Positions 1,897 to 63,457 of a DNA stretch of 64,000 nt are shown piece after piece. Source of the stretch: an uncultured Phycisphaerales bacterium (GTDB lineage: Bacteria; Planctomycetota; Phycisphaerae; Tepidisphaerales; Tepidisphaeraceae); assembly GCA_963755915.1 (NCBI GenBank), contig CAVWLP010000002.1:2368001-2432000 (forward strand), in the 5' to 3' direction. The position numbers and the translations under genes were made by a program. How positions within the stretch are numbered: position 1 is the first letter of the stretch; each line of letters starts with the position of its first letter. Under the pieces are notes generated by a model. It had not been told where the DNA came from and did not search any database. It saw only the letters and a program-made list of their open reading frames with translations.

Positions 1897-3091
1897 GCGG
1901 TTTGCCAGTGAGCGTTGGAACGGAGGTGAAGGAGGGGGATCGCGGCGCGGAGCCTACGCGAGAGAAGAGCGCGGCAATTCGGCGCTACGCGGGTGCGGAA
2001 TGTTTGGAATTGATCGCCAATTGCCGTGAAGAATGGATGAAGGCGCTGAGAAGGGGTGCGGGGGGTGCGGTGGACTTGCACGCGGATTTATTAGATTCCG
2101 CATGGGGGGAACGGGCGGTGGTTTTATTCAGCGAGGCGGATGATGAGGGGGAAGGCGCGCGGTTCGCTGCTTTGGCGGGCCAGCCGATCATTTTGCGAAT
2201 GCTGGCGAAACCAAGGGTGCGGGTGCGCCTGTCCGGCCATCGGCTGATCGGCAGCGAGATCGTGGGATGCGCGACGGCGCGGGAGCGCCGTCCGTTCATC
2301 GAGGGGATGTTCGATCTCGTGGCTGGGCGGGAGACCGAATGCGTTATGGTGGACGACCTGGAGGTTGGCTCGGCGATGCAGGAGGCGCTGGCGTCGCAGG
2401 CCGGATCGGATCGGCGCATCATGCTGCATCAGCCGGCGGCATCGCAAGCGAGATGGTGGATTGAGTTTGGGGGAGATCCCGGGCGATATTGGGAGAAATT
2501 TTCGAAAAAAACCCGGGAGACGCTGCGAAGCAAGGTGCGGAAACTGGGGCACGAACTGGTGAAATTCACATCGGTTGACGAGGCGCTGGAATTCTTGAAG
2601 TTGGCGGAAGAGATTTGCGCACGAGCTGGCAGAGCAAGCAGATGGGCTTGCGCATCTCGGATAGCGCGGGATCACGGGAATATTGGCGGAAGGTGGCGGG
2701 AATCGGAGCGTTTCGATCTTATGTTCTGCGGCAGGGGGAGCGACCGATTGCGTTCATGGTTGGACGGCAGTGGGAAGGGAAATTTTATTATGAGGAGGCG
2801 GGATACGATCTGGCGTTGGCCAAGCAATCGCCGGGGACGGTGCTGCAGGTGCGAGTGATTGAGGATTTGATCGAACACGACACGCCGCGTTTATTCGATT
2901 TCAGCTTTGGCGATGGAGAGCACAAACGGTTTTTCGGGAATCGACAGACGAGCAGCGCGGCGGTTTTGGTGCTGCGGAGGTCGTGGAGAAACCTGGCGAT
3001 TTCGGGACTTCAGCGGGCCAGTGCCTCGGCGGTGGCGAGTCTTCGTTCATCGAGGTTGTACAAGCGACTGCGCCGGGCGCAGCGGGCGTGA
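1893..3091 (+). CDS. GNAT family N-acetyltransferase, CelD/BcsL-like (frameshift near 2620)
   Basis: YWEKFSKKTRETLRSKVRKL, then in the next frame GYDLALAKQSPGTVL and FDFSFGDGEHKRFF; ATGA overlap with the upstream gene. Confidence 0.8.
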
Positions 3092-3097
3092 ATCAGG

Positions 3098-4075
3098 ATG
3101 AATCGAAGGGCGTATATTCTGGTTCTGATGGTGGCGGCGCTGGCGGGGACGATGTGGGTGATCTCGCCACAGGCTGACGTGGCGGACACTACGGCGGGGG
3201 CGAGTACGCAGCCGGATCTGGGGGTGGGGGCGAGTTTGCACGGCCGGCGGATGTTTCCGGCGGATAACTGGTGGAACCGGGATATATCGAACGATCCGGT
3301 AGATGCGGATTCAGATGCGATTGTGGCGGGGATCGGGGTGGGGAAGTCGCTGCATCCGGATTTTGGGACGGGGCAGAACGGGGCGGCGTATGGGATTCCG
3401 TATATGGTGGTGAGCGGGGACCAGGCGAAGGTTCCGGTGAGGTTTTCGACGAATGATGAGAGTGATGCGGGGCCGTATCCAATTCCGCCGGACGCGCCGG
3501 TGGAGGGGGGAGCGAACAGCGACGGCGATCGGCATGTGATCGTGCTGGATCGGGACCACTGGATGTTGTACGAGATTTTTGCGGCGCGGCAGAATCCGGA
3601 TGGGTCGGGATGGAGCGGGTATTCGGGGGCGATTTTTGATCTGAATTCGAATCGGCTCAGGCCCAGCGGGTGGACGAGCGCGGACGCGGCGGGGTTGCCG
3701 ATATTGCCGGGGCTGGTGAGATATGACGAGGTGGTGGAGCAGGGGCATATCGATCATGCGCTGCGGTTTACGTGCCGGCGGACACGGCGGGCGTTTATCG
3801 CGCCGGCGACGCATTTTGCGGCGCATTCGGACAGTGCGGATTTGCCGCCGATGGGCATGCGGGTGAGGCTGAAGGCGTCGGTGGATATTGACGGGTTTCC
3901 CCCGACGGCGCAGGTGGTGCTAAAGGCGTTGAAGCAGTATGGGATGATATTGGCGGATAATGGGGGGAGTTGGTTTATCAGCGGGGCGCCTGATCCGCGG
4001 TGGAACGATGCGGAGATCGAGACGCTGAAGCGGGTTCATGGGGGGGATTTTGAGGTGGTGCAGATGGAGCAGTAG
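3098..4075 (+). CDS. Conserved hypothetical secreted protein
   Basis: N-terminal hydrophobic signal; motifs WNRDIS, GDRH, WTSADAAGLP, RYDEV..G.I.HALRFT, YGMILADNG. Confidence 0.75.
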   Translation: MNRRAYILVLMVAALAGTMWVISPQADVADTTAGASTQPDLGVGASLHGRRMFPADNWWNRDISNDPVDADSDAIVAGIGVGKSLHPDFGTGQNGAAYGIPYMVVSGDQAKVPVRFSTNDESDAGPYPIPPDAPVEGGANSDGDRHVIVLDRDHWMLYEIFAARQNPDGSGWSGYSGAIFDLNSNRLRPSGWTSADAAGLPILPGLVRYDEVVEQGHIDHALRFTCRRTRRAFIAPATHFAAHSDSADLPPMGMRVRLKASVDIDGFPPTAQVVLKALKQYGMILADNGGSWFISGAPDPRWNDAEIETLKRVHGGDFEVVQMEQ

Positions 4076-4112
4076 ATTCGATTGCCGAATGCCGATTGCC
4101 AAATGCCGAATG
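4076..4112. repeat. Heptamer tandem repeat (ATTGCCG/AATGCCG)
   Basis: attgccg aatgccg attgcca aatgccg aatg. Confidence 0.75.
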
Positions 4113-4192
4113 AAAGGCGCGTAGGGCGTGCCTTTTGTTCGGCATTTGTCGTTTGGGGGGAAAGGGAACTGAGGAGCGTTGGCGGATTTTGC

Positions 4193-4233
4193 TTGACGGA
4201 AGGAGAAACCGCTGTAGCATAGTAACCGTTTAC
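4193..4233 (+). promoter_or_regulatory. Candidate sigma70 promoter with a LacI-type operator upstream of the GH10 gene
   Basis: TTGACG (4193) -16 nt- TAGCAT (4215), followed by the near-palindrome GTAACCGTTTAC (4222-4233); GGAGG RBS at 4281. Confidence 0.4.
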
Positions 4234-4294
4234 TCTGAAGATTTCCGAGCGTTTTAGAGGTTGCCGAGCAATTTGTTTGCGGAGGACTCGGTCA

Positions 4295-7252
4295 ATGAAA
4301 TCGTTGAAGCGTTGCCTGGCGGCGGCGGTGTGGGGAGTTCCTGCGTTTGGCTGGGGGCAGACGGTAATAAACGGGGACAACATGGCGCTGCTATCGAGCG
4401 GCGCGGCCAGCGGGAGCGGCTGGACATTGAGCAGCGATGGGTATGTGGGGAGCTACATCACCCTGGGGACCGCGGAACCGGTGACGTTTACACTGAATGC
4501 AAGCGGTGTTGCGTCGAACGGGCTGAATCCGGACATGTCGCTGTCGATCGCGGACAGCACGGATTCGTTCAGCGTGACGCCGGGGAGCTCGAATAATTAT
4601 ACGTATACGACGCCCACGCTGCCGGCGGGGACGTATCTGGTGCGGACGCAACTGGACAACCAGAATGCGACGCAGACGCCGAGTTTGACGGTGAATTCGA
4701 TGACGGTTTCGGGGGCGGGGATCTCGGTTTTGCAGGGGTCGGCGAACAACAGCAGCACCAATGCGATGGCGGCGGCGACGACATATGCGCAGAATTTCCG
4801 GTCGGGTTCGGCGACGATTTCGCTGACGAATGGAAATGGGCTGCAGCTTGGGGCGGGGACACAGGTGCAGGTGAAGCTGATCAGCAATGCGTTTACGTTT
4901 GCGGGGGCGGTGTATGGGTTCGATCCGTACTATGAGCCGGCGCAGTGGTTAAACGGAGGGGTTTCCACGCCGGTGAGCTCGGCGCCGAACACGACGGAGG
5001 AGATCAGTTATCAGAACGCGATTCTGTCGAATTTCAACGCGATTGTGCCGTCGAATGCGGGGAAATGGGGGAACAACGAGAACACGCAGGGAAGCGTGAA
5101 CATGAATACGGTTGACGCGATGACGGATTTCGCGGTGCAGCATGGGCTGGCGGTGCGGATGCATAACGGTTTTTGGGGGGCGACGGAGCAGCCGGGGTTC
5201 GTCAATACCTGGTTCAGCGCGATCGACAGCGGGTCACCGAACGCGGCGGCAGATCTCGCGTCCCTCAAGAGCGCGATGACGAGCCGGGTGAATTATTATT
5301 TGTCGGGAAACAACGGGGCGCTGGGGACGCCGCGGACGGACAGTTACCAGGAAGTGGATCTTTTTAACGAGCTTTGGCATACGCAGGCGGATTCGGACAA
5401 TTACCTCGGGGTGCTGGGGTATCAGGGGGTGGCGAATTATTACGCGCAAGCGGCGACGGATATTAAGAATGCGGGGGCGAATACGCGGCTGTACACGAAT
5501 GAGTACAACGTGCTTCAGTTTTCGCCGGCGACGATAAGCAGCAGCGGCGCGGCGAGCGGGTCGGACCCATATGCGAACTGGTATTTGAAGGGGATTCAGA
5601 CGATTCAGAACGATGGGGGGCCGATTTCGGGGGTGGGGATGGAACTGTACGTCGATACGAACGACGCGGTGAACGCGGCGCAGATGGAAGATGCGATGCA
5701 GAATTTGTCGGTGGACAAGACGGCCAGCGGAGCGGCGGCGGCGTTGTCGCTGACGGAATTCGGGGTTGGGACGGGGGATTCACCGTCGAACAGCACGTAC
5801 GATACGGATTTGACGACGGCGCTGACGATGATTTACGGGACGCCGCAGGCGACGACGTTTGGGTATTGGGCGGGAATTGGGGGACCGAACGACAACACTC
5901 CCTACTCGCTTTACAACAGCAGCTATCAGCTCACGTCGGCGGGGCAGACGTTTGAGAACTGGATGAGCCAATGGCAGACGAACGATACGCTGACGACGAA
6001 TTCCAGCGGGCAGGTTTCGTTTAACGGGACGTATGGCCTGTACGACGTGATCGTGGACGGAGTGACGTATGAGCTGGACCTGGTGAAGGGGACGACGAAT
6101 TACGGGATGATGACGCCAATCAGCGGGGCGACGTGGACTGGGGGTGGCGCGGATAATAATTGGAATACGGCTGGGAACTGGGGGAGCACGGCGCTGACGG
6201 CGAATGCGCCGCTGGTTTTTGCGGGGAATGCGAATCTTTCGCCGAACAATAACTCGGCGGCGAATACGGCTTATTCGGGGATTACGTTCAATCCGGGGGC
6301 GGCAGCGTTTTCGATCGGGGGGAATGCGATTGAACTCTCTGGGAACATCGTGAACAACAGCAGCAATTCGCAGGCGATCAACCTGAACATCGCGCTGGAA
6401 GCGAACGCGACGCTGAATACGGCAAGCGGGAACCTGGCGATCGGGGGGAATATCAGCGGGGCGTTTTCGATCACCAAAACCGGGGCAAATATCCTGACGC
6501 TTTCGGGGACGAACAGTTACAGCGGTGCGACGACGGTTAGCACGGGCGGGCTGGTGGTGGGGTCGGCGGGGGCGCTGCCGGCGATGACGAGCCTGGCGAT
6601 TGGGAACGCGACGTCGGTGCAGCTAAGCACCGGCGTCGGGCAGGTGACGGTGGCGGGGCTGTCGATCGCGGGGACAGGGGTGCTGGATATCACGAACAAT
6701 CACATGATCATCACCTACGGGTCGAGCGATCCGATCGGGACGATCGAGGGGTATCTTGCCAGCGGGTTTAACAATGGGGAGTGGAATGGGCCGGGGATTA
6801 TTTCTTCGGCGGCGCAGACGCTGAATAATGGGCTGGAGTATGGGGTCGGATTCGCGGACGGGGCGGATGGGGTGGTGGCGGGGTTGAGTTCGGGGCAGAT
6901 TGAATTGAAATACACCCTGCTGGGAGATGCGAATCTGGATGGGACGGTGAACGGGTCGGACTTCAGCATCCTGGCGTCGAACTTTGGAACCGGGGCGACG
7001 AACTGGGACCAGGGGAATTTTCTGTTCAGCAGCTCAGTGAATGGGTCGGATTTCTCGGCGCTGGCGGCAAACTTTGGGCAGGGAGACAACGGGGCGGATA
7101 ATGAGGTGACGCCGGCGGACGTGGCGGCGCTGGATGCGTTTGCGGCGGCGAATGGATTGCTGGCGGATGTTCCGGAGCCGGGGTGCGCGGCGCTGGCGGG
7201 GATTGGGGTGCTAATCGCGGCGCGACGGCGTGTGCGGCGCGTGGGGAAATAA
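4295..7252 (+). CDS. GH10 endo-1,4-beta-xylanase-like protein with autotransporter-associated beta-strand repeat, dockerin-like module and PEP-CTERM anchor
   Basis: Signal peptide; NAGKW, VRMHNGFW, DLFNE (acid/base Glu), LYTNEYN, LTEFG (nucleophile Glu); TKTGANILTLSGTNSYSGATTV; GDANLDGTVNGSDF; VPEP + TM + RRR. Confidence 0.85.
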   Translation: MKSLKRCLAAAVWGVPAFGWGQTVINGDNMALLSSGAASGSGWTLSSDGYVGSYITLGTAEPVTFTLNASGVASNGLNPDMSLSIADSTDSFSVTPGSSNNYTYTTPTLPAGTYLVRTQLDNQNATQTPSLTVNSMTVSGAGISVLQGSANNSSTNAMAAATTYAQNFRSGSATISLTNGNGLQLGAGTQVQVKLISNAFTFAGAVYGFDPYYEPAQWLNGGVSTPVSSAPNTTEEISYQNAILSNFNAIVPSNAGKWGNNENTQGSVNMNTVDAMTDFAVQHGLAVRMHNGFWGATEQPGFVNTWFSAIDSGSPNAAADLASLKSAMTSRVNYYLSGNNGALGTPRTDSYQEVDLFNELWHTQADSDNYLGVLGYQGVANYYAQAATDIKNAGANTRLYTNEYNVLQFSPATISSSGAASGSDPYANWYLKGIQTIQNDGGPISGVGMELYVDTNDAVNAAQMEDAMQNLSVDKTASGAAAALSLTEFGVGTGDSPSNSTYDTDLTTALTMIYGTPQATTFGYWAGIGGPNDNTPYSLYNSSYQLTSAGQTFENWMSQWQTNDTLTTNSSGQVSFNGTYGLYDVIVDGVTYELDLVKGTTNYGMMTPISGATWTGGGADNNWNTAGNWGSTALTANAPLVFAGNANLSPNNNSAANTAYSGITFNPGAAAFSIGGNAIELSGNIVNNSSNSQAINLNIALEANATLNTASGNLAIGGNISGAFSITKTGANILTLSGTNSYSGATTVSTGGLVVGSAGALPAMTSLAIGNATSVQLSTGVGQVTVAGLSIAGTGVLDITNNHMIITYGSSDPIGTIEGYLASGFNNGEWNGPGIISSAAQTLNNGLEYGVGFADGADGVVAGLSSGQIELKYTLLGDANLDGTVNGSDFSILASNFGTGATNWDQGNFLFSSSVNGSDFSALAANFGQGDNGADNEVTPADVAALDAFAAANGLLADVPEPGCAALAGIGVLIAARRRVRRVGK

Positions 7253-10287: not shown

Positions 10288-11643
10288 ATGAAATCGCAGG
10301 GCGACCATATTGAAGTGATGGCGGGGATCGCGTCGGACGAGGACCGGCTTCCGAATCGGCCGCTGCAATGGCTGGCGCTGATGGTGATCGCGGCGTTTGT
10401 GGGGGCGGTGACGGGGCTGGTGGGGGTGGCGTTTCGGATATCGCTGATGTGGGCGGATTATCGGCGCAATCAGATGATCGCGTTTGCACATGCGCATTTT
10501 CCAGGATGGATCGGGTGGGTTTTGCCGGTGGGTTGCTGCGCGGTGGGGGCGGGATTGGCTTTGTGGCTGACGCAGCGGCTGGCGCCGCAGACGGCAGGGA
10601 GCGGGATTCCGCGGGTGGAGTCGGTGGTGCGGAATCATTTGAAGCCGGCGAACCTGGAGATTCTGCCGGTGAAATTTTTCGGCGGGATCCTGGGGATTGG
10701 AAGCGGGCTGGCGCTGGGGCGCGAGGGGCCGACGGTGCAGATGGGGGGGACGGTCGGGCGATTGACGGCGGATGGGCTGAAGAAGATTGTGCCGGAGCCC
10801 TGGACGTTTATCGCGGCGGGGGCGGGTGCGGGATTGGCGGTGGCGTTTAACGCGCCGCTGGCGGCGGTGCTGTTTGTGGTGGAGGAGCTGCTGCATCGGT
10901 TTTCGACGCGGGTTTTCAGCGCGACGCTGGTGGCGTGCGTGACGGGGACGGTGGTGCTGCGGCATTTTCTGGGGAACGTGACGGATTTTGGGGCGCCGGT
11001 GATGGGCGAGATGCCCTCGAGAGTTTTGCCGCAGTATCTGCTGCTGGGGCTTGTGGCGGGGTTGGTGGGCGTTGCGTACAACCGCGGGCTGCTGCTGTCG
11101 ATGGATATTTTGGGCGGCGCGCAATTGGCCGCGCGGCACGAAGGCGGCGGTGGTGGGGGCGGGGGCGGGGCTGCTGGGTATTTTTCGCCGGGGTTGGTGG
11201 GTGGGGGGGAGAATATTGGGGAGCTTGCGATCACGGGGCACATTTTTCTCTGGACGGCCATCTGGATTTTTGCGGTGCGGTTTGTGCTGGCAATGTTTTC
11301 ATATGGGTCGGGGGCGCCGGGCGGGGTTTTCGCGCCGCTGCTGGCGATAGGGGCGGTCTTGGGGCATATTTTTGTTGGGGGTTGGGTTTTGATGGGCGGG
11401 AAAATTGGGGAGCCGGCGGCGTTTGCGATTGTTTCGATGGCGGCGCTTTTCACGGCGACGATTCGCTCGCCGCTGACGGGAGTGGTGTTGCTCCTGGAGA
11501 TGACGGGGAGCTGGACGCTGATTCTGCCGATGATGGCGGCGTGTTTGCCTGCGTATGCGGTGCCGGAGCTGCTGGGAAATCTGCCGCTTTATGATTCGCT
11601 GCGGGAGCGGGATGAGAAAGTGGAGGGCGCGGAGCGGCAGTGA
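10288..11643 (+). CDS. clcA: ClC family H+/Cl- antiporter
   Basis: GSGIP, GREGP (gating Glu), FNAPL, VEEL and GGVFAP signature motifs. Confidence 0.9.
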   Translation: MKSQGDHIEVMAGIASDEDRLPNRPLQWLALMVIAAFVGAVTGLVGVAFRISLMWADYRRNQMIAFAHAHFPGWIGWVLPVGCCAVGAGLALWLTQRLAPQTAGSGIPRVESVVRNHLKPANLEILPVKFFGGILGIGSGLALGREGPTVQMGGTVGRLTADGLKKIVPEPWTFIAAGAGAGLAVAFNAPLAAVLFVVEELLHRFSTRVFSATLVACVTGTVVLRHFLGNVTDFGAPVMGEMPSRVLPQYLLLGLVAGLVGVAYNRGLLLSMDILGGAQLAARHEGGGGGGGGGAAGYFSPGLVGGGENIGELAITGHIFLWTAIWIFAVRFVLAMFSYGSGAPGGVFAPLLAIGAVLGHIFVGGWVLMGGKIGEPAAFAIVSMAALFTATIRSPLTGVVLLLEMTGSWTLILPMMAACLPAYAVPELLGNLPLYDSLRERDEKVEGAERQ

Positions 11644-57537: not shown

Positions 57538-58455
57538 GTGAGGATTCTGGTTACCGGCGGAGCCGGATTCATCGGGTCGAACTTGGCCATCGAACTTGCT
57601 TCGGCTGGCCATGAGGTTGCAATCGCGGACGATTTCTCGTCGGCCTATTGGAAAAATCTGATCGATTTTCGGGGAGAGGTCGTAGCCGCTGATATCGCGG
57701 CCGACGCAACGCCGCTTACTCGTCTCGATCCCTGCCAGGTCATATATCATCAGGCCTCCATTACTGACACGACCGTCACGGATCAGCGCAAGATGACGTT
57801 CAACAACGTTGAAGGGTTCCGAAACATCCTGGAACTGAGCAAGCAGTGGCAGAGCCAGGTGATCTGGGCGGGAAGCGCCAGCGTTTATGGCAGAACGCCG
57901 GCGCCAACGAAGGAGTCGGTAAAATCCGATCCGCTCAATGTCTACGCTTACTCGAAGCTGGCGATGGAGCATCTGGCGGATCGATATCGATCCAAGCTCC
58001 AGCGCGACATTGTCGGATTGAGATATTTCAATGTGTATGGGCCAGGGGAGGATCACAAGGGGAAATTCGCCAGCATGATTCATCAGCTCGCCAAACAGAT
58101 GCGAGCCGGCAAGCGTCCGCGAATTTTTACGGCCGGGCAGCAACGCCGGGATTTCGTGTACGTGGCGGACGTGGTGCAGGCGAATATTTCGGCGATCAAA
58201 TCGACCCGCGGCGGAGTGTTCAACATCGGCAGCGGGGCGTCGTGGTCATTCAATGAGGTGGTCGTCCAGCTCAACCGGGTGCTGGAAACAAAATTGGAGC
58301 CGGATTATTTCGAAAATCCCTACAGTTTCACGCAGGATTGGACCGAAGCGGATTTAACGGAATCGAAGCGGTGCCTGGGCTATGAGCCGCGGTATGATCT
58401 TGCCAAAGGGATCGACGCCTACCTGAAAAGCGGGCAACTGGGAGTTGGCCGATGA
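57538..58455 (+). CDS. hldD: ADP-L-glycero-D-manno-heptose 6-epimerase-like NAD-dependent epimerase
   Basis: TGGAGFIGSN, HQASITDTT, PLNVYAYSK, LRYFNVYGPGEDHKG and RDFVYV. Confidence 0.8.
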   Translation: MRILVTGGAGFIGSNLAIELASAGHEVAIADDFSSAYWKNLIDFRGEVVAADIAADATPLTRLDPCQVIYHQASITDTTVTDQRKMTFNNVEGFRNILELSKQWQSQVIWAGSASVYGRTPAPTKESVKSDPLNVYAYSKLAMEHLADRYRSKLQRDIVGLRYFNVYGPGEDHKGKFASMIHQLAKQMRAGKRPRIFTAGQQRRDFVYVADVVQANISAIKSTRGGVFNIGSGASWSFNEVVVQLNRVLETKLEPDYFENPYSFTQDWTEADLTESKRCLGYEPRYDLAKGIDAYLKSGQLGVGR

Positions 58456-59300
58456 GCGAATTGATCTGGATCAACGGGGAAATCATGCCGCTGAATGAAG
58501 CGCGCATCGGCGTCGAGGATCGGGGGTTTCAGTTTGCTGATGGGGTCTACGAAGTCGTCCGGATTTACAACGGCAAACTGTTTGCGCTCGACGCCCACCT
58601 TCAGCGATTGGTGAAATCTGCGGAAGGGATCGAGCTGAAGCTGCCGGTTGCGGCGGGGCAGTTGCGCGGGGAGATTGGGAAATTCGTCGCGCGGAATCCA
58701 CTTGCGGATGGGATGATCTATCTTCAGCTCACCCGCGGGGCGGCGCCGCGGAATCACGCGTTTCCGGATTGCGGGCCGACCCTGCTGTTTTATGCGCGGG
58801 AGCTGGATCCGCTGGGCGAGCCTGCCAAGTCGCAGGGGATTCGGTTGATAACTGTCGCGGATGAGCGATGGAAGCGGTGCTGGATCAAGTCGATCGCGCT
58901 GCTTCCGAATGTGCTGGCGAAGAATAAGGCGCTGGCCGCCGGCGCGGATGAAGCGGTGTTCATCGACAACGGCGTGGTGACGGAATGCTCGGCGAGCAAC
59001 GTGTTCATCGTGCGCGGGCGGCGGCTTCTGACTCATGCCGTTGGGCCCAAGGTGCTTCCGGGAATCACCCGGGCGATTCTTCTGGAGCTTGCACCCACGG
59101 TTGGCCTGAGCGTGGGCGAAGAGGCGTTCAGCGAAGATGAAGCGATCCATGCGGATGAGGTTTTCATCACCAGCACGACGCGGGAGATTTCGTGGGTTTT
59201 GCGGTGGAATCAGACGCAGATCGGGTCGGGGAAGTGCGGGCCGCATACGCTGGCGCTGCATGAGGCGCTTCGCAAACGCGTCGCCGGCGAGACGGCGTAA
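58452..59300 (+). CDS. Class IV aminotransferase (D-amino-acid transaminase-like)
   Basis: EDRGFQFADGVYEV, IKSIALLPNVL, ECSASNVF, LPGITR and ADEVFITST. Confidence 0.9.
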   Translation: MSELIWINGEIMPLNEARIGVEDRGFQFADGVYEVVRIYNGKLFALDAHLQRLVKSAEGIELKLPVAAGQLRGEIGKFVARNPLADGMIYLQLTRGAAPRNHAFPDCGPTLLFYARELDPLGEPAKSQGIRLITVADERWKRCWIKSIALLPNVLAKNKALAAGADEAVFIDNGVVTECSASNVFIVRGRRLLTHAVGPKVLPGITRAILLELAPTVGLSVGEEAFSEDEAIHADEVFITSTTREISWVLRWNQTQIGSGKCGPHTLALHEALRKRVAGETA

Positions 59301-59360
59301 GGATTTTCAGCCCTGCTCAGTTGACGATTTTTAGCCAAATTTCTGGCACTTTGCAACAGG

Positions 59361-59381
59361 TGTGGGCGCTGATGTGGGCGC
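59361..59381. repeat. Arm-type direct repeat pair TGTGGGCGC (12-nt period), left end
   Basis: tgtgggcgc tga tgtgggcgc. Confidence 0.75.
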
Positions 59382-59601
59382 GTGAATGCGGGTATGCCTA
59401 CAGCGTAATCAGCATTGTCTGAGATGAAACCGAAAAGGAGGCCAAGACCAATTCGAAAAACGACCGCCTCAGTTTCATCCAATACCCGTTCACCTTTCGA
59501 TGTTTCCCACATTCAAATATGATCGGTTAATTACGTGAAATAGCATTATGTGATTAGGTTCTCGGATGACGCCTTGGGGCCAGCCTTCAGGCCTTCGCGC
59601 T

Positions 59602-60033
59602 TCACTGAAAGAAGAGGCCGTGGTTCAGACCAAAGAATCCGGCCACGTTCGCGATGGCTGACTTGCTCCACTCTCGCTTGCCGCTCAACATGTCCGACAG
59701 GGCGCTCTGGGAAATGCCACGTTGCTTGGCAAAGGCATTCACACTCAGGCCGCGTTCGCCGAGCAGGTGTCGCACGACATCCGCCGCCGAAATGCCCGAC
59801 GTGTCCAACTGAAGATTCTGCTCACGCTCGTACGTCTCGATAAGGCCGACCAGAACCTTCTTGTAGTCGAGCACGTCCTTTCGCTTATCCCCAACGAGGC
59901 TACGAAGAGCCTGCTTGGATTGTCGGTGTTCCTCGGCGTTGTGGATGGGCCGGAGCGGATAGAGATTCACGATCAGGTTGAGGTAGGGGTCGAGGCCCGT
60001 TGACGCGCCCGAGTTCTTGGTTTTTGTTGTCAT
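59602..60033 (-). CDS. higA: HigA-type antitoxin (XRE HTH)
   Basis: PLRPIHNAEEH...LIETYE...LLGERGLSV..A...GISQSALSDMLSGKR. Confidence 0.85.
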   Translation of the reverse strand: MTTKTKNSGASTGLDPYLNLIVNLYPLRPIHNAEEHRQSKQALRSLVGDKRKDVLDYKKVLVGLIETYEREQNLQLDTSGISAADVVRHLLGERGLSVNAFAKQRGISQSALSDMLSGKREWSKSAIANVAGFFGLNHGLFFQ

Positions 60034-60034
60034 C

Positions 60035-60343
60035 TCAGTATCTCTCTTTCCACAAGTTCTTGTCGTACTCGGCGTGCGTAGGAACTTCTAACACCTCAAC
60101 GAATTGAGCGTCGTAGTCAATGACGGTCAGGAGGCGGTAATTGCCGCCCTTGGTGTTGAACACTGTCACGACAGTCTTGCTTTTCAGCGTTACGCCATCG
60201 GCCGAGGAATATGTCTTCCTCACGTTCTGCAAGCTGTGCCACTCCGACTCATCAACGGCCTTGGCCCACACGTCAAGCCATGTTTTGAGCGGCTTGTTCT
60301 TTTTGCCCACCGCTGTCAGCACGTCCTGCCCGATCAGCGTCAT
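60035..60343 (-). CDS. higB: HigB-type toxin (RelE-like mRNA interferase)
   Basis: W...V....W.SLQNVRKTYSSAD...VFNTKGGNYRLL..IDY...THAEYDK. Confidence 0.88.
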   Translation of the reverse strand: MTLIGQDVLTAVGKKNKPLKTWLDVWAKAVDESEWHSLQNVRKTYSSADGVTLKSKTVVTVFNTKGGNYRLLTVIDYDAQFVEVLEVPTHAEYDKNLWKERY

Positions 60344-60349
60344 TATCAC

Positions 60350-60395
60350 ATTATGCGATAGATCGGCCGAAAAGTCAAGAAACATTAGCCGATCT
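60350..60395 (-). promoter_or_regulatory. higBA sigma70 promoter with an overlapping inverted repeat (likely HigA operator)
   Basis: Minus strand TTGACT (60378-60373) -17 nt- CATAAT (60355-60350), 6 nt before the ATG; AGATCGGC (60360) / GCCGATCT (60388) inverted repeat. Confidence 0.7.
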
Positions 60396-60788
60396 GGCGT
60401 GCGTTCCGAGCAAGTTTTACGCCCCCCTCAGTCACCGGCTCGAAATGATTCCTGATCTCGACCCTGATGACCTCCCGACGCCAAGAACTGATACCCCAGA
60501 CCGCAACGGCTGCTCCCAAAATCGTCGCCGCACTTGCCGCTACGCTCACCCATCCCCGCAAATCCGATGGCATGAAAGTCCCCATTCTCCCACAATAGCC
60601 CATCACAGATACTGGGGAATGCGACCGATACGCAGCATTTGGTTATGACGATCCGGTTCGATAAGGAGAGTCATTTCTGGCCGCGCCGAGGTGGGACTTG
60701 CCCGAGGCACAAAGTACGAAACCGTCACAGAAATGACCCACAGATCGATTAAGGCACGACGGAGAGGCTGGACGTTTCACCCTATCCA

Positions 60789-60809
60789 TGTGGGCGCGTA
60801 TGTGGGCGC
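60789..60809. repeat. Arm-type direct repeat pair TGTGGGCGC (12-nt period), right end
   Basis: tgtgggcgc gta tgtgggcgc. Confidence 0.75.
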
Positions 60810-60931
60810 GACAGCTAATAAATCGTGCTCGTATTGCGTCAAATGCACCATTTTTTTGAATTGCAGAAGTGCGCAGCAGAAAACTCCGGTTATGGCCGGA
60901 GTTTGTGCAGTTTTAGCTGCCTTCTGGTCAA

Positions 60932-60965
60932 TGGGCGGAGCCGGAATTGAACCGGCGACACATGG
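60932..60965 (-). pseudogene. tRNA 3' half (Phe-like), att-site fragment
   Basis: CCAT-GTGTC-GCCGG-TTCAATT-CCGGC-TCCGCCC-A: 3' anticodon stem, variable loop, T-arm and acceptor strand; no D-arm or 5' half; followed by a hairpin at 60874-60908. Confidence 0.8.
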
Positions 60966-60969
60966 TTTT

Positions 60970-61164
60970 TTACATCCTGGGGTCGCCGGGTGTTTCAATG
61001 TCGGGGTCGTCGCCCTTCAAATCGTTCAAAAGATCGACGTAATCGGCATCGTCTAATTCGAACCAATCGGGGATTGCGGCGACGGCGCAGCCGCGGCGCT
61101 CGGCGAGGGCTTCGAGGATCCGTTGGCGGAGGTCGGGATCGGTTATTTCGCGGATGCGGATCAT
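60970..61164 (-). CDS. Small acidic hypothetical protein
   Basis: 64-aa ORF directly downstream of the PIN gene; its stop codon abuts the att fragment. Confidence 0.55.
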   Translation of the reverse strand: MIRIREITDPDLRQRILEALAERRGCAVAAIPDWFELDDADYVDLLNDLKGDDPDIETPGDPRM

Positions 61165-61174
61165 AACTAACGGT

Positions 61175-61525
61175 TCAGGGTGTACGGATGCGCATGACTG
61201 CCGGTGATATGACTATGAATGCACGTTCAAGCCGGGAAGCGTGTTCGCGAACGGCATCGCGGACTAATTTCGCCTTGGTGTCGCTGGACAAACCCGACAA
61301 ACGCAGAAGCACCACGCCGGAATGAACTTTTTTTTGGCGGTAAACGAGCAGTCCAAAATCCTTGTCATCAGTCAGTAGCATTGACTGCGTTTTATTCGCC
61401 AGTTCAAGGACGCGGTCGTCATCCATGCCACGGCCGATTTCTTTGATGGACTGAACGCTATGGCCGTCGGCGCGCAAAGCGTCGATTATCGAGGCATCGA
61501 CGTTTTCGTCAGCAAGAAAATTCAC
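61175..61525 (-). CDS. DUF5615 PIN-like putative toxin
   Basis: FLADENV, GHSV, DDRVL, LLTDDKDFG and GVVLLRL. Confidence 0.88.
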   Translation of the reverse strand: MNFLADENVDASIIDALRADGHSVQSIKEIGRGMDDDRVLELANKTQSMLLTDDKDFGLLVYRQKKVHSGVVLLRLSGLSSDTKAKLVRDAVREHASRLERAFIVISPAVMRIRTP

Positions 61526-61758
61526 ACGGCCGTTCCACGAATCGGATAAACGACATCCGACCCCAGTGATTTAGCCGCGAAATCGAGCGCCGCGCGAATT
61601 GCCGGTTCTGTCAAATGCGGAAAGGCTTCGAGAATCTGTTCGACTGTTTCACCCGCGGCGAGTCTTTCGAGGATCAACTCCACAGTGATTCTGGTGCCTG
61701 CGATGACCGGTTTGCCCATCATGATGCGAGGATTGGCTTCAATAACTGGTTCTGCCAT
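61522..61758 (-). CDS. DUF433 putative antitoxin
   Basis: IEANPRIMMGKPVIAGTRITVELIL..LAAG....IL..FPHL; 4-nt overlap with the PIN gene. Confidence 0.92.
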   Translation of the reverse strand: MAEPVIEANPRIMMGKPVIAGTRITVELILERLAAGETVEQILEAFPHLTEPAIRAALDFAAKSLGSDVVYPIRGTAV

Positions 61759-61831
61759 ATAGGGTCCGTATATTGGGGCTTATTATACCCGCCGAGATGG
61801 AACTAGCACGAGGCAGCGACATCCATTTGAT

Positions 61832-61876
61832 AAACCTAACCCCGCCGCCGCATTCCCCAGAGTTCAGGGGAGGGGG
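61832..61876. repeat. Degenerate CCCTCCCC..GGGGAGGG repeat
   Basis: aacctaaccccgccgccgcattccccagagttcaggggaggggg. Confidence 0.5.
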
Positions 61877-61893
61877 TAAGAGGGGGAAGACAT

Positions 61894-63457
61894 TTATAGT
61901 CCATATTCCTTCCACCGCCGCTCGATCAACTCTCGGGTTTTCTGATCCACCTCCAGCTCCTTCGGCCAGGTCCGCACCTTCCCCTCGGCGGGCCATTTCA
62001 CGGTGGCATCGAAACCGATTTTGCTCCCCGCCCCCAATTCCGGGCTGGCGTGGTCGAGAATGTCGACCGGGCCATGAACGATTTCGCTGTCGCGCTGGGG
62101 ATCGCAATTGGAGAAGAGGTGGAAGAGGACATCCTGCTCGTCGTGAACATTCACGTTCTCGTCCACCACGATGATGAATTTCGTGAACGACATCTGGCCC
62201 GCTCCCCAGATCGCGTGCATGACCCGGCGAGCCTGCCAGGGATATTCCTTGCGAATCTTGATGAAGGCGCAGTTATGGAACACGCCGCTGATCGGCAGGC
62301 TGTAATCGACGATGTCGGGAACGATGGTGCGCAGCAGGGGCAGGAAAATCCGTTCGGTGGCCTTGCCGAGGAAATAATCTTCCATCGGCGGCTTGCCGAC
62401 GATCGTCGTCGGATAGATCGGATTTTTTCGGTGAGTGATGGCGGTGATGTGATAAGCCGGATACCAGTCGGCAAGGCTGTAGAATCCGGTGTGATCGCCG
62501 AACGGGCCTTCCATGAGCTTTTCGCTGGGGTCGACGAATCCTTCGATGACGATTTCGGCGTTGGCCGGGACTTCAAGGGGGATCGTCCGGCAGGGGACGA
62601 GTCTGGATCCCGCCGTCGTTGAGGAATCCGGCAAAGAGCAGCTCTTCAATGCCAGGCGGCAGTGGGGCGGTGGCGGCGTAGGGCAAAACGCTTTCGCCGC
62701 CGAGCACGATTGCCAGGGGCATTTTCTCGCCGCGCTTTTGATACATGCGGAAATGGCGGGCGCCGTCGTGGTGCATGTGCCAGTGCATGGCGCATTTGCG
62801 CGGGCCGAACTGCTGGACGCGGTACATGCCGATGTTGCGGTCGCCGGTCTCGGGGTTCTGGGTGAAGATTCCGCCGAAGGTGATATAGCGGCCGGTGCCT
62901 TTTTCGGTGAGCTTTTCGCAGGCGGCGGGATCGAAGACCTGGCCGCTGTCGACAAATCGCCATCGAGGGGCCAGCATTGAATGAGCGGCAGACGATTCAA
63001 ATCGGCCTTTTCGCCTTCGAGCAGGACCTGCTGGCAAATTCCGGTTGCGGACGGATTTTGGGGGAAAACTGCCGAGCTTCAGAAGATCCGGCAGCTTCTT
63101 CATTTTCTCGAGCAGCGTCGTGGGAATTTCCGGTTTCACAAGGGCCTGGACGCGTTCGGCAAGCTCGGCCAGCGAATTCGTTCCCAGCGCCTTGTTGACG
63201 CGCCAGTAGGATCCAAAGGTGTTGATGGCGACGGGAATGTCTGAGCCCGCGACATTTTCGAAGAGCAGTGCCTTGCCCCCGAGTTTCGAGGCGGCGGACT
63301 GGTCGAGCTCCTGATGGCCGTGCGGGGCGGGTGTTCGGGACATGCGGCCGGCGATGGCGGCGATTTCCAGCTTCGGATCGACTGTCGCCGGTACTTTGGC
63401 GAGTTCGCCTTCGCGCTCCAGAAGGGCCAAAAAGTCGGAAAGGGTTTCGGTGGACAT
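61894..63457 (-). CDS. UbiD family decarboxylase (menaquinone/futalosine-pathway type; several frameshifts)
   Basis: VDPKLEI, ALLFEN, QCWPLDG, RNIGMYR, MHWHMHHDGA, EGPFGDHTG, GKPPMED and LDHAS. Confidence 0.9.

Follow-up and report, generated by a model that had tools for sequence, protein, structure and literature searches.

A 1.66-kb higBA segment with permuted tRNA-Phe pieces at its ends, probably what remains of a small, decayed tyrosine-integrase element at a secondary, non-tRNA site

We analysed a 64,000-nucleotide (nt) stretch of DNA from an uncultured Phycisphaerales bacterium (the window; C2:2368001-2432000 of the host genome, G000) and within it the segment 59301-60969, which carries a HigBA toxin-antitoxin pair and has pieces of a tRNA-Phe gene at its two ends. 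In the explanation that we prefer, with a probability of roughly 0.6, this 1.66-kb segment is what decay has left of a small tyrosine-integrase element. The element would normally target the anticodon-loop region of tRNA-Phe but here sits at a secondary site, and its mobility genes, the integrase among them, would have been deleted and higBA kept. An earlier reading of the letters without database searches (the sequence-only reading) had proposed a non-autonomous, integrase-free element with attP-derived tRNA-Phe halves, arm-type repeats, a non-tRNA integration site and HigBA, and this proposal is borne out by the same attachment-site layout in integrase-bearing islands of two relatives, G007 and G073. 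G000 itself is a metagenome-derived genome of 3 contigs and 6,626,754 bases, 81% complete and with 8% contamination by marker genes. Unprefixed coordinates below are positions in the window.

The segment is an insertion, because relatives have the flanking genes without it. It is bounded by the stop codons of two convergent open reading frames (ORFs), an aminotransferase gene on the left and a gene for a conserved protein of 64 amino acids (aa) on the right, and these two genes are adjacent in several genomes of the same genus. The empty site that the sequence-only reading proposed to look for is found in G003, where 7 nt separate the two stop codons, and in G011, where the same two ORFs overlap by 35 nt. 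When one 7-nt GGATTTT is counted as the target, the rebuilt G000 site likewise reads stop codon, 7 nt, stop codon, with the spacing of G003. Relatives that lack HigBA hold none of the boundary sequences, their site being either empty or otherwise filled, with different and unrelated inserts at the same intergenic place in G010, G012 and G004. A search of 140 other genomes of the order turned up no copy of the element's non-coding arms (59311-59600 and 60395-60930). Misassembly, the other worry raised earlier, is countered by short-read contigs that span the left junction (X2 record 8, X4 record 22) and the right junction (X1 record 4, X3 record 20) with 0 differences, the four runs coming from one study that possibly includes the source sample and so being not independent of the assembly.

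The other occupants of this site are diverse. The insert in G004 (L009, about 2350-3130) is about 780 nt long, encodes a 143-aa membrane-protein ORF and is flanked by a 15-nt direct repeat, GTTCACATCCGCGGA, which duplicates the 3' end of the 64-aa gene; G010 has a palindromic insert of about 200 nt and G012 one of about 130 nt. The intergenic site between the two convergent genes is an insertion hot spot.

The two ends of the segment hold different parts of a tRNA copy, and the pieces abut in tRNA numbering at the insertion boundaries. Read on the minus strand from 60965 to 60932, the right end is a 34-nt tRNA 3' part made up of variable loop, T arm, acceptor 3' strand and discriminator A. We ran ARAGORN on the whole G000 genome, which gave 83 tRNA genes, and aligned the host tRNA-Phe(GAA) (G000:C2:1338880-1338952, 1.09 Mb from the element) to both junctions. 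By BLAST, 60932-60970 matches this gene at 37/39 positions (E 2.8e-9), and the next-best of the 83 host tRNAs scores 17 against the fragment, compared with 30 for tRNA-Phe. The acceptor-strand mismatch is TCCGCCC in the fragment versus TCTGCCC in the host gene. At the left end, the reverse complement of 59301-59310 reads CTGAAAATCC, a 10-mer identical to part of the anticodon loop and stem in the host tRNA-Phe, and the displaced fragments of relatives' tRNA-Phe islands begin at the same tRNA position as this piece. The 10-mer is not at the boundary by chance, because the genome holds only 60 copies of it on both strands; the chance of its falling on an independently defined boundary in the correct orientation is roughly 1e-4. 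Both pieces thus match the host gene, in agreement with the sequence-only reading, which had seen a tRNA 3' half without a 5' half on the right and a Phe-type anticodon loop on the left. Its further claim that joining the two ends regenerates the tRNA through a terminal CCA stands for the tRNA part, if the shared core is counted once, and falls for the CCA, since the fragment stops at the discriminator A with no encoded CCA, as the host tRNA-Phe gene does. ARAGORN found no tRNA gene in the segment, where Rfam at E up to 10 gave only noise.

The sequence shared by the two ends is the 7-nt AAAATCC, which is both the rebuilt intergenic spacer and tRNA-Phe positions about 35-41, and which would be the crossover core common to the secondary and the primary site. 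The right copy is one base short in G000, and the short-read contigs confirm its GGTTTT. Across the junction at 60965 host sequence gives way to the P' side, and across that at 59301 the P side gives way to host sequence, so arranged that the ends of the segment read as the two halves of an attP of the G007/G073 type opened at its core. Integration of such an attP into a non-tRNA site would leave the tRNA pieces permuted and overlapping only in the core, which is the arrangement found. The sequence-only reading had called the target a mimic of an anticodon arm, and this is only partly borne out: the 7-nt core and a 5-bp inverted repeat around it are present in the rebuilt site, while beyond the core, in register with the tRNA, 0/8 bases match on the left and 2/5 on the right. 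AAAATCC itself occurs 2,313 times in the genome. The candidate primary attB, the host tRNA-Phe gene, is intact and unoccupied, with no displaced fragment within about 10 kb downstream.

The segment's genes are flanked on each side by two copies of the 9-mer TGTGGGCGC in tandem, their period being 12 nt. Such a pair at both ends had been noted from the letters, and the genome-wide count strengthens the observation: TGTGGGCGC occurs 58 times on both strands, and pairs within 40 nt are found only twice in 6.6 Mb, both times in the element (59361/59373 and 60789/60801). Taken singly and with up to one mismatch allowed, the 9-mer shows no enrichment in the window (20 found versus 31 expected), so the signal lies in pairing and placement and not in the frequency of the single motif. 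With a core and two arms that carry repeated, putative arm-type sites, the element has an attP-type architecture (Table 1). The hairpin at 60881-60904 was not called by the terminator scan.

Table 1. Features of the segment and its two flanking genes (window coordinates)
Feature	Position	Strand	Basis and remarks
Class IV aminotransferase gene (left flank)	58452..59300	+	ORF; PF01063 E 5.9e-50; stop TAA 59298-59300; syntenic in relatives
attR-like junction: imperfect tRNA-Phe D-stem/anticodon-stem 5' side GAGCAGGG, then CTGAAAATCC; element-derived	59301..59318	-	10-nt exact tRNA match
Left core copy GGATTTT (AAAATCC in tRNA sense); presumed crossover/overlap region	59301..59307		Direct read; same 7-mer at G001 right junction
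P-arm tandem pair of 9-mer TGTGGGCGC, 12-nt period; putative arm-type integrase-binding sites	59361..59381		59 and 71 nt before core, tRNA sense
HigA-like antitoxin, 143 aa, C-terminal XRE-type helix-turn-helix	59602..60033	-	PF01381 (HTH_3) 23.3 bits vs cut-off 23
HigB toxin (RelE-like)	60035..60385	-	PF09907 69.5 bits vs cut-off 27
Predicted sigma-70-like higBA promoter: TTGACT, 17 nt, CATAAT	60350..60378	-	10/12 positions match; kept in G001
ORF73, 73 aa, without relatives; possibly not a gene	60385..60606	-	ORF list; deleted in G001
P'-arm tandem pair of TGTGGGCGC, 12-nt period	60789..60809		124 and 136 nt after tRNA 3' end, tRNA sense
9-bp hairpin, terminator position, weak T run	60881..60904	-	Inverted repeat I12, about 30-50 nt after tRNA 3' end
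attL-like junction: tRNA-Phe 3' part, positions about 40-73; element-derived	60932..60965	-	Sequence read, tRNA alignment, BLAST
Right core copy, 6/7 bases in G000 (GGTTTT); full GGATTTT in G001	60964..60969		Direct read
Conserved 64-aa gene, no assigned function (right flank)	60970..61164	-	ORF, stop 60970-60972; homologues in relatives

The same layout is seen at real tRNA-Phe genes in relatives, where it comes with an integrase. In tRNA-Phe islands or displaced fragments of G015, G010, G007 and G073, and in several single fragments, the tRNA copy extends from the anticodon stem or loop to the 3' end (the displaced repeat of G015 is tRNA positions 29-73); in five of these islands or fragments this start matches the piece ends in the element. 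Because displaced tRNA copies start there, elements that would cross over in the anticodon stem/loop region of tRNA-Phe and carry a replacement 3' part appear to be common in the order. Such islands are numerous in the relatives, and two of them are complete as well as small. The G007 island (same genus; L015 2034-5760) encodes a PF00589 tyrosine integrase, an HTH_17 excisionase-like protein and a replication (Rep) protein of the ORF2/G2P type, and the G073 island (L180, about 2188-6396) encodes an integrase 43% identical over 426 aa to that of G007; Pfam excisionase-like and Rep genes were found in the G007 island only, not in that of G073. Both islands are small (3.7-4.2 kb), and in both the integrase ORF points towards and into the tRNA end.

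Their arms resemble those of the segment in position and in sequence. In tRNA sense, the element has the repeat unit GCGCCCACA at -71/-59 before the core (P) and at +124/+136 after the tRNA end (P'); G007 has the unit TGCAGCGC at -82/-71 and +120/+131; and G073 has GCAGCGCC at -81/-70 and at +123, with a one-mismatch copy near +112. When the three P arms are aligned the repeats fall in register, with GCGCC common to all, and each of the three has a hairpin shortly after the tRNA end. The element thus shares with G007 and G073 the attP layout, GCGCC-type pairs on both arms at matching distances, the hairpin and the sublocation within the tRNA; it differs in that these islands encode an integrase and no higBA was noticed there, in that their unit is (T/C)GCAGCGC(C) with an 11-nt period, as against GCGCCCACA with a 12-nt period, and in that the arm sequences beyond the repeats cannot be aligned with confidence. 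The paired-repeat layout is not universal: the G015 island showed no arm repeat at the thresholds used and G010 a pair in the P arm only (-78/-68), so that among the 4 complete islands examined both arms carry pairs in 2 and the P arm in 3. A G007-type integrase was not found in the G010 and G015 islands.

Inside the element there are only higB, higA and the orphan ORF73; integration and transfer genes are absent, and none of the scanned ORFs of 59210-61056 gave an integrase Pfam match (PF00589 or other). The two toxin-antitoxin genes form a toxin-first operon on the minus strand, higB followed after a 1-nt gap by the helix-turn-helix antitoxin gene, whose product scores 15.9 bits against the HigA model TIGR02607, below its cut-off of 47.7. 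The true higB start is probably the Met codon at about 60343, because the position of the upstream ATG reads ATA in the sister species G001. ORF73 gave no Pfam match and no homologue among proteins of 40-128 aa, and the 64-aa gene on the right flank gave no Pfam or NCBIfam match. The closest metagenome relatives of HigB are 75%, 66%, 62% and 60% identical, none of them with the element arms, and no HigB relative was found in viral contigs.

Homologues of higBA (66-67% DNA identity) lie within 200 nt of a complete tRNA-Phe at two loci, L164 2277-3244 (a metagenome contig) and L013 7597-8582 (G015), which are on unrelated contigs and differ in how higBA and tRNA-Phe are arranged. Altogether, at 5/23 of the HigB-homologue loci examined, a tRNA gene lies no more than about 700 nt away (Phe twice, Arg(TCG) twice, Thr once). 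The higBA clade looks like habitual cargo or a leftover of tRNA-targeting elements. A further toxin-antitoxin-like pair, DUF5615/PIN-like (61175-61525) and DUF433 (61522-61758), adjoins the right flank on the minus strand, and for window 61165-61889, the stretch that holds it, no G001 match was reported.

The sister species G001 carries higBA at the same site in a more reduced form. The parts corresponding to window 59298-59597 and 60395-60949 are missing, homology ending at 60394, and only higA and higB with their promoter, 16 nt of the tRNA piece and the right junction remain. Deletion at this locus is therefore demonstrated in G001, where the arms are lost, and the state of the locus suggests the next stage of decay, with both arms gone and only higBA and 16 nt of the tRNA piece left. 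Both higBA ORFs are intact there, the HigA-like antitoxin with 3 aa differences. The left-hand deletion (L002, about 2290-2300) also removed the aminotransferase stop codon, and the G001 aminotransferase ORF is now predicted to extend by about 24 codons into the antisense of the 3' end of higA.

The divergence between G000 and G001 is uneven across the site. The higBA genes differ at 17/797 positions (98% identity), as against 75/846 in the aminotransferase gene (Fisher p about 1e-9) and 27/216 in the 64-aa gene, and identity is 88-93% in seven syntenic blocks of the 20 kb around the site. The right junction (16 nt of tRNA piece, T run, stop codon) is equal in the two genomes but for one base, and divergence resumes about 20-25 nt outside the junctions. 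Because higBA is so much closer than its flanks, higBA or the whole element evidently reached the G000 and G001 lineages, or was exchanged between them, well after they split; the history may comprise two site-specific insertions, or one old insertion and an internal exchange.

The anatomy of the segment, its status as an insertion, the sibling islands and the loss of the arms in G001 are observed directly, and a coherent account of the G000 segment can be given as follows. The circular form of the ancestral element would have carried an attP in which the core AAAATCC was combined with an imperfect 5' side of the anticodon stem and the complete 3' part of the tRNA, with tandem arm-type repeats in each arm and a hairpin beyond the tRNA end. 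An integrase of the G007/G073 type would have crossed over within the 7-nt core, and its partner would have been not tRNA-Phe but the 7-nt spacer between the convergent stop codons, which reads AAAATCC by chance. This would have broken up the attP-borne tRNA copy and permuted its two pieces, so that the upstream junction received the 3' part and the downstream junction the loop piece, and both flanking ORFs would have been left whole. The integrase, whose former presence inside the element we infer along with the crossover itself, would later have been lost by deletion together with any excision or replication genes, while higBA with its own promoter would have stayed, probably because its loss is toxic. 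Retention through higBA addiction, as the sequence-only reading had it, is consistent with the fact that G001 keeps only HigBA and its promoter.

Several observations weigh against this account. Loss by deletion is unproven, since no trace of an integrase remains: tblastn with the G007 integrase and with ORFs of at least 200 aa from 13 loci found nothing significant in 60390-60935, and the sole similarity obtained with the G007 integrase lay in the tRNA-derived tail. The tRNA-Phe primary site of G000 is intact and unoccupied, so that the use of a secondary site needs explaining. That site hardly resembles a tRNA outside the core, which makes it odd that G000 and G001 should both carry the element there, with 17/797 differences in higBA and 75/846 in the flank. 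No full-length parent element was found in the genome itself, the genomes of the order, or the metagenome and viral contigs scanned, and the tyrosine integrase flanked by TGTGGGCGC pairs near tRNA-Phe that the sequence-only reading had proposed to search for turned up in none of these sets, including the host's own genome (81% complete). Among genome contigs there were at least 121 stretches with a repeat pair, of which none listed shares more than the pattern itself. A search for the repeat pair plus tRNA end gave 0 matches in metagenome contigs and 0 in viral contigs, exact matches only, so that diverged relatives would be missed; with up to one mismatch, in 141 genomes of the order, the pattern matched in 7/140 others, no more commonly than a reversed-pattern control, and none of these matches lies near a tRNA or an integrase. 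Finally, Logan contigs of the four runs contained no circular or empty-site joints, at a depth of about 3-5 and in contigs, which drop rare variants.

Two faint resemblances to integrases were rejected as chance: TCRYAHP versus TARYAHP, 7 residues found by tblastn at E 0.2-0.6, and 19 residues of ORF73 on the opposite strand against two G000 integrases (E 0.12-0.29). Five tyrosine integrase genes of G000 that are distantly related to that of G007 (23-34% identity) are each beside a tRNA gene (Met, Cys, Gly, Val and Val), none of them at tRNA-Phe; they lie at C3:160413-161461 (matched in three pieces), C2:2213631-2214479, C2:3918345-3919397, C2:3029717-3030793 and C2:3565522-3566517.

The missing integrase trace would be accounted for directly if the segment had never held one, being instead a miniature attP cassette of two arms, core and higBA that was moved in trans by a helper of the G007/G073 type and arrived separately in G000 and G001. 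The completeness of its core, its hairpin and both arms with their repeat pairs fits this, and so does the 98% identity of higBA against 88-93% in the seven blocks, with divergence resuming so near the junctions, as would be expected of recent site-specific arrivals; the hosts can also meet, since a G001-type higB allele was found in one run that holds G000. We nevertheless think it unlikely. A helper with matching arm repeats turned up in neither G000 nor G001, whose best integrases are 34% and 35% identical to that of G007, there is no other TGTGGGCGC pair in G000, and no second copy of the element exists in G000, G001 or the 141 genomes of the order. A 1.66-kb circle would be without visible means of replication or intercellular transfer, and the right core in G000, one base short, should hinder excision. 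A stronger form of the idea seems to us more doubtful still: here the 7-nt spacer between the stop codons would be a true alternative attB hit independently in two species, and the 1.66-kb unit a self-standing att cassette, a toxin-antitoxin pair with only a complete attP, that spreads between soil bacteria living together by exploiting integrases from small tRNA-Phe elements. If that were true, a toxin-antitoxin module would be acting as its own minimal integrative mobile element.

The coincidence of two independent hits at one of 2,313 such 7-mers, improbable given the weak tRNA likeness outside the core, would be avoided if the insertion happened once, long ago, in an ancestor shared by G000 and G001, and a later homologous exchange confined to the element's interior made higBA alike; the near-equality of the right junction in both genomes speaks for it. 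It requires an extra recombination whose two crossovers both fell within about 300-550 nt of arms since lost in G001, where no arm sequence survives as evidence, and we regard it as rather improbable; it concerns history only and leaves the nature of the element unchanged. Last, the tRNA-like pieces and repeats could be chance resemblances or a product of the assembly, in which case higBA would be an ordinary insertion between genes, from some other source. The left piece is indeed only 10 nt long, and the assembly is metagenome-derived with some contamination by marker genes, yet the right piece matches at 37/39 positions, the pieces abut in tRNA numbering at independently defined boundaries, the only two repeat pairs in 6.6 Mb are placed as in the integrase-bearing islands, and each junction is spanned by short-read contigs of two runs; we consider this explanation hardly credible.

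Some further observations concern other parts of the window and genome. Two overlapping long ORFs on the minus strand, 62573-63457 and 61894-63000, look like halves of one frameshift-split gene, which we take to be of decarboxylase type. At 10556-10649 ARAGORN called an unusually long, 94-nt tRNA-Cys(GCA) with its anticodon at position 32, which may be a false call or an interrupted gene. Elsewhere in G000, C2:3699152-3702079 packs 26 tRNA genes into 3 kb, one of them a second, atypical tRNA-Phe(GAA), and this array may belong to a mobile element.

The remnant of a tRNA-Phe element that we favour leaves current models unchanged, and its value is descriptive and practical for annotation. The locus offers a clean natural example of the decay of a site-specific element, caught at two stages in sister species (att ends, arms and higBA in G000; higBA alone in G001), in which the toxin-antitoxin pair outlasts everything else. 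Integration at a non-tRNA site, as the locus also shows, is marked by two tRNA fragments in permuted order, a signature missed by island mappers that seek a tRNA with a displaced fragment. It also points to a family of very small (3.7-4.2 kb) tyrosine-integrase elements at tRNA-Phe in the order, whose arm-type sites are readable from sequence.

Among known systems, elements of tRNA-targeting classes that cross over in the anticodon loop are said to have been distinguished by Williams in 2002. Like islands of the type mapped by Islander, a resource whose subject is tRNA-gene genomic islands according to PMC4383910, the element carries a replacement tRNA 3' part, and the repeats of its sibling islands start at the anticodon stem/loop; unlike them, it shows no regenerated tRNA and no displaced fragment, because its partner site is not a tRNA gene. 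Since it has neither an integrase of its own nor a place in a tRNA gene, it is not a member of the integrase-bearing tRNA-island class; it is the remnant of one.

Use of secondary attachment sites is familiar from phage lambda. ICEBs1, according to PMC3715440, targets a tRNA gene and can integrate at secondary sites, from which its excision is impaired and where rolling-circle replication without excision is harmful. The element resembles such cases in that its primary target is a tRNA gene and its secondary site has a short core only; it differs in having its primary site present and unoccupied, in lacking the integrase and in the further-decayed copy that a sister species has at the same secondary site. 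Loss of mobility genes may be favoured in such a position because of impaired excision and harmful unexcised replication, the G007 sibling having a Rep gene.

A toxin-antitoxin system that stabilises a genomic island is the stated subject of PMC8978831. As with HigBA on other mobile elements, the toxin gene here comes first and the helix-turn-helix antitoxin gene second, with a promoter of their own, and the pair is the last part to survive decay of the element; the difference is that activity and addiction are predicted here from the sequence, and that the antitoxin scores below the NCBIfam HigA cut-off.

The element is best read as similar to a cis-mobilizable element (CIME), which, as characterised in PMC5704250, is a decayed element keeping attL and attR. 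It has attL/attR-like junctions with intact arm repeats, lacks integrase and transfer genes and has kept a toxin-antitoxin maintenance module. It differs from a CIME in that it occupies a secondary non-tRNA site, its junctions carry permuted tRNA parts instead of a long direct repeat, the repeat is only 7 nt long (6/7 in G000), its sibling elements are tiny, of the integrase/Rep kind and not conjugative, and an incoming related element would target tRNA-Phe and not this site. With these differences, it is a familiar kind of decayed mobile DNA.

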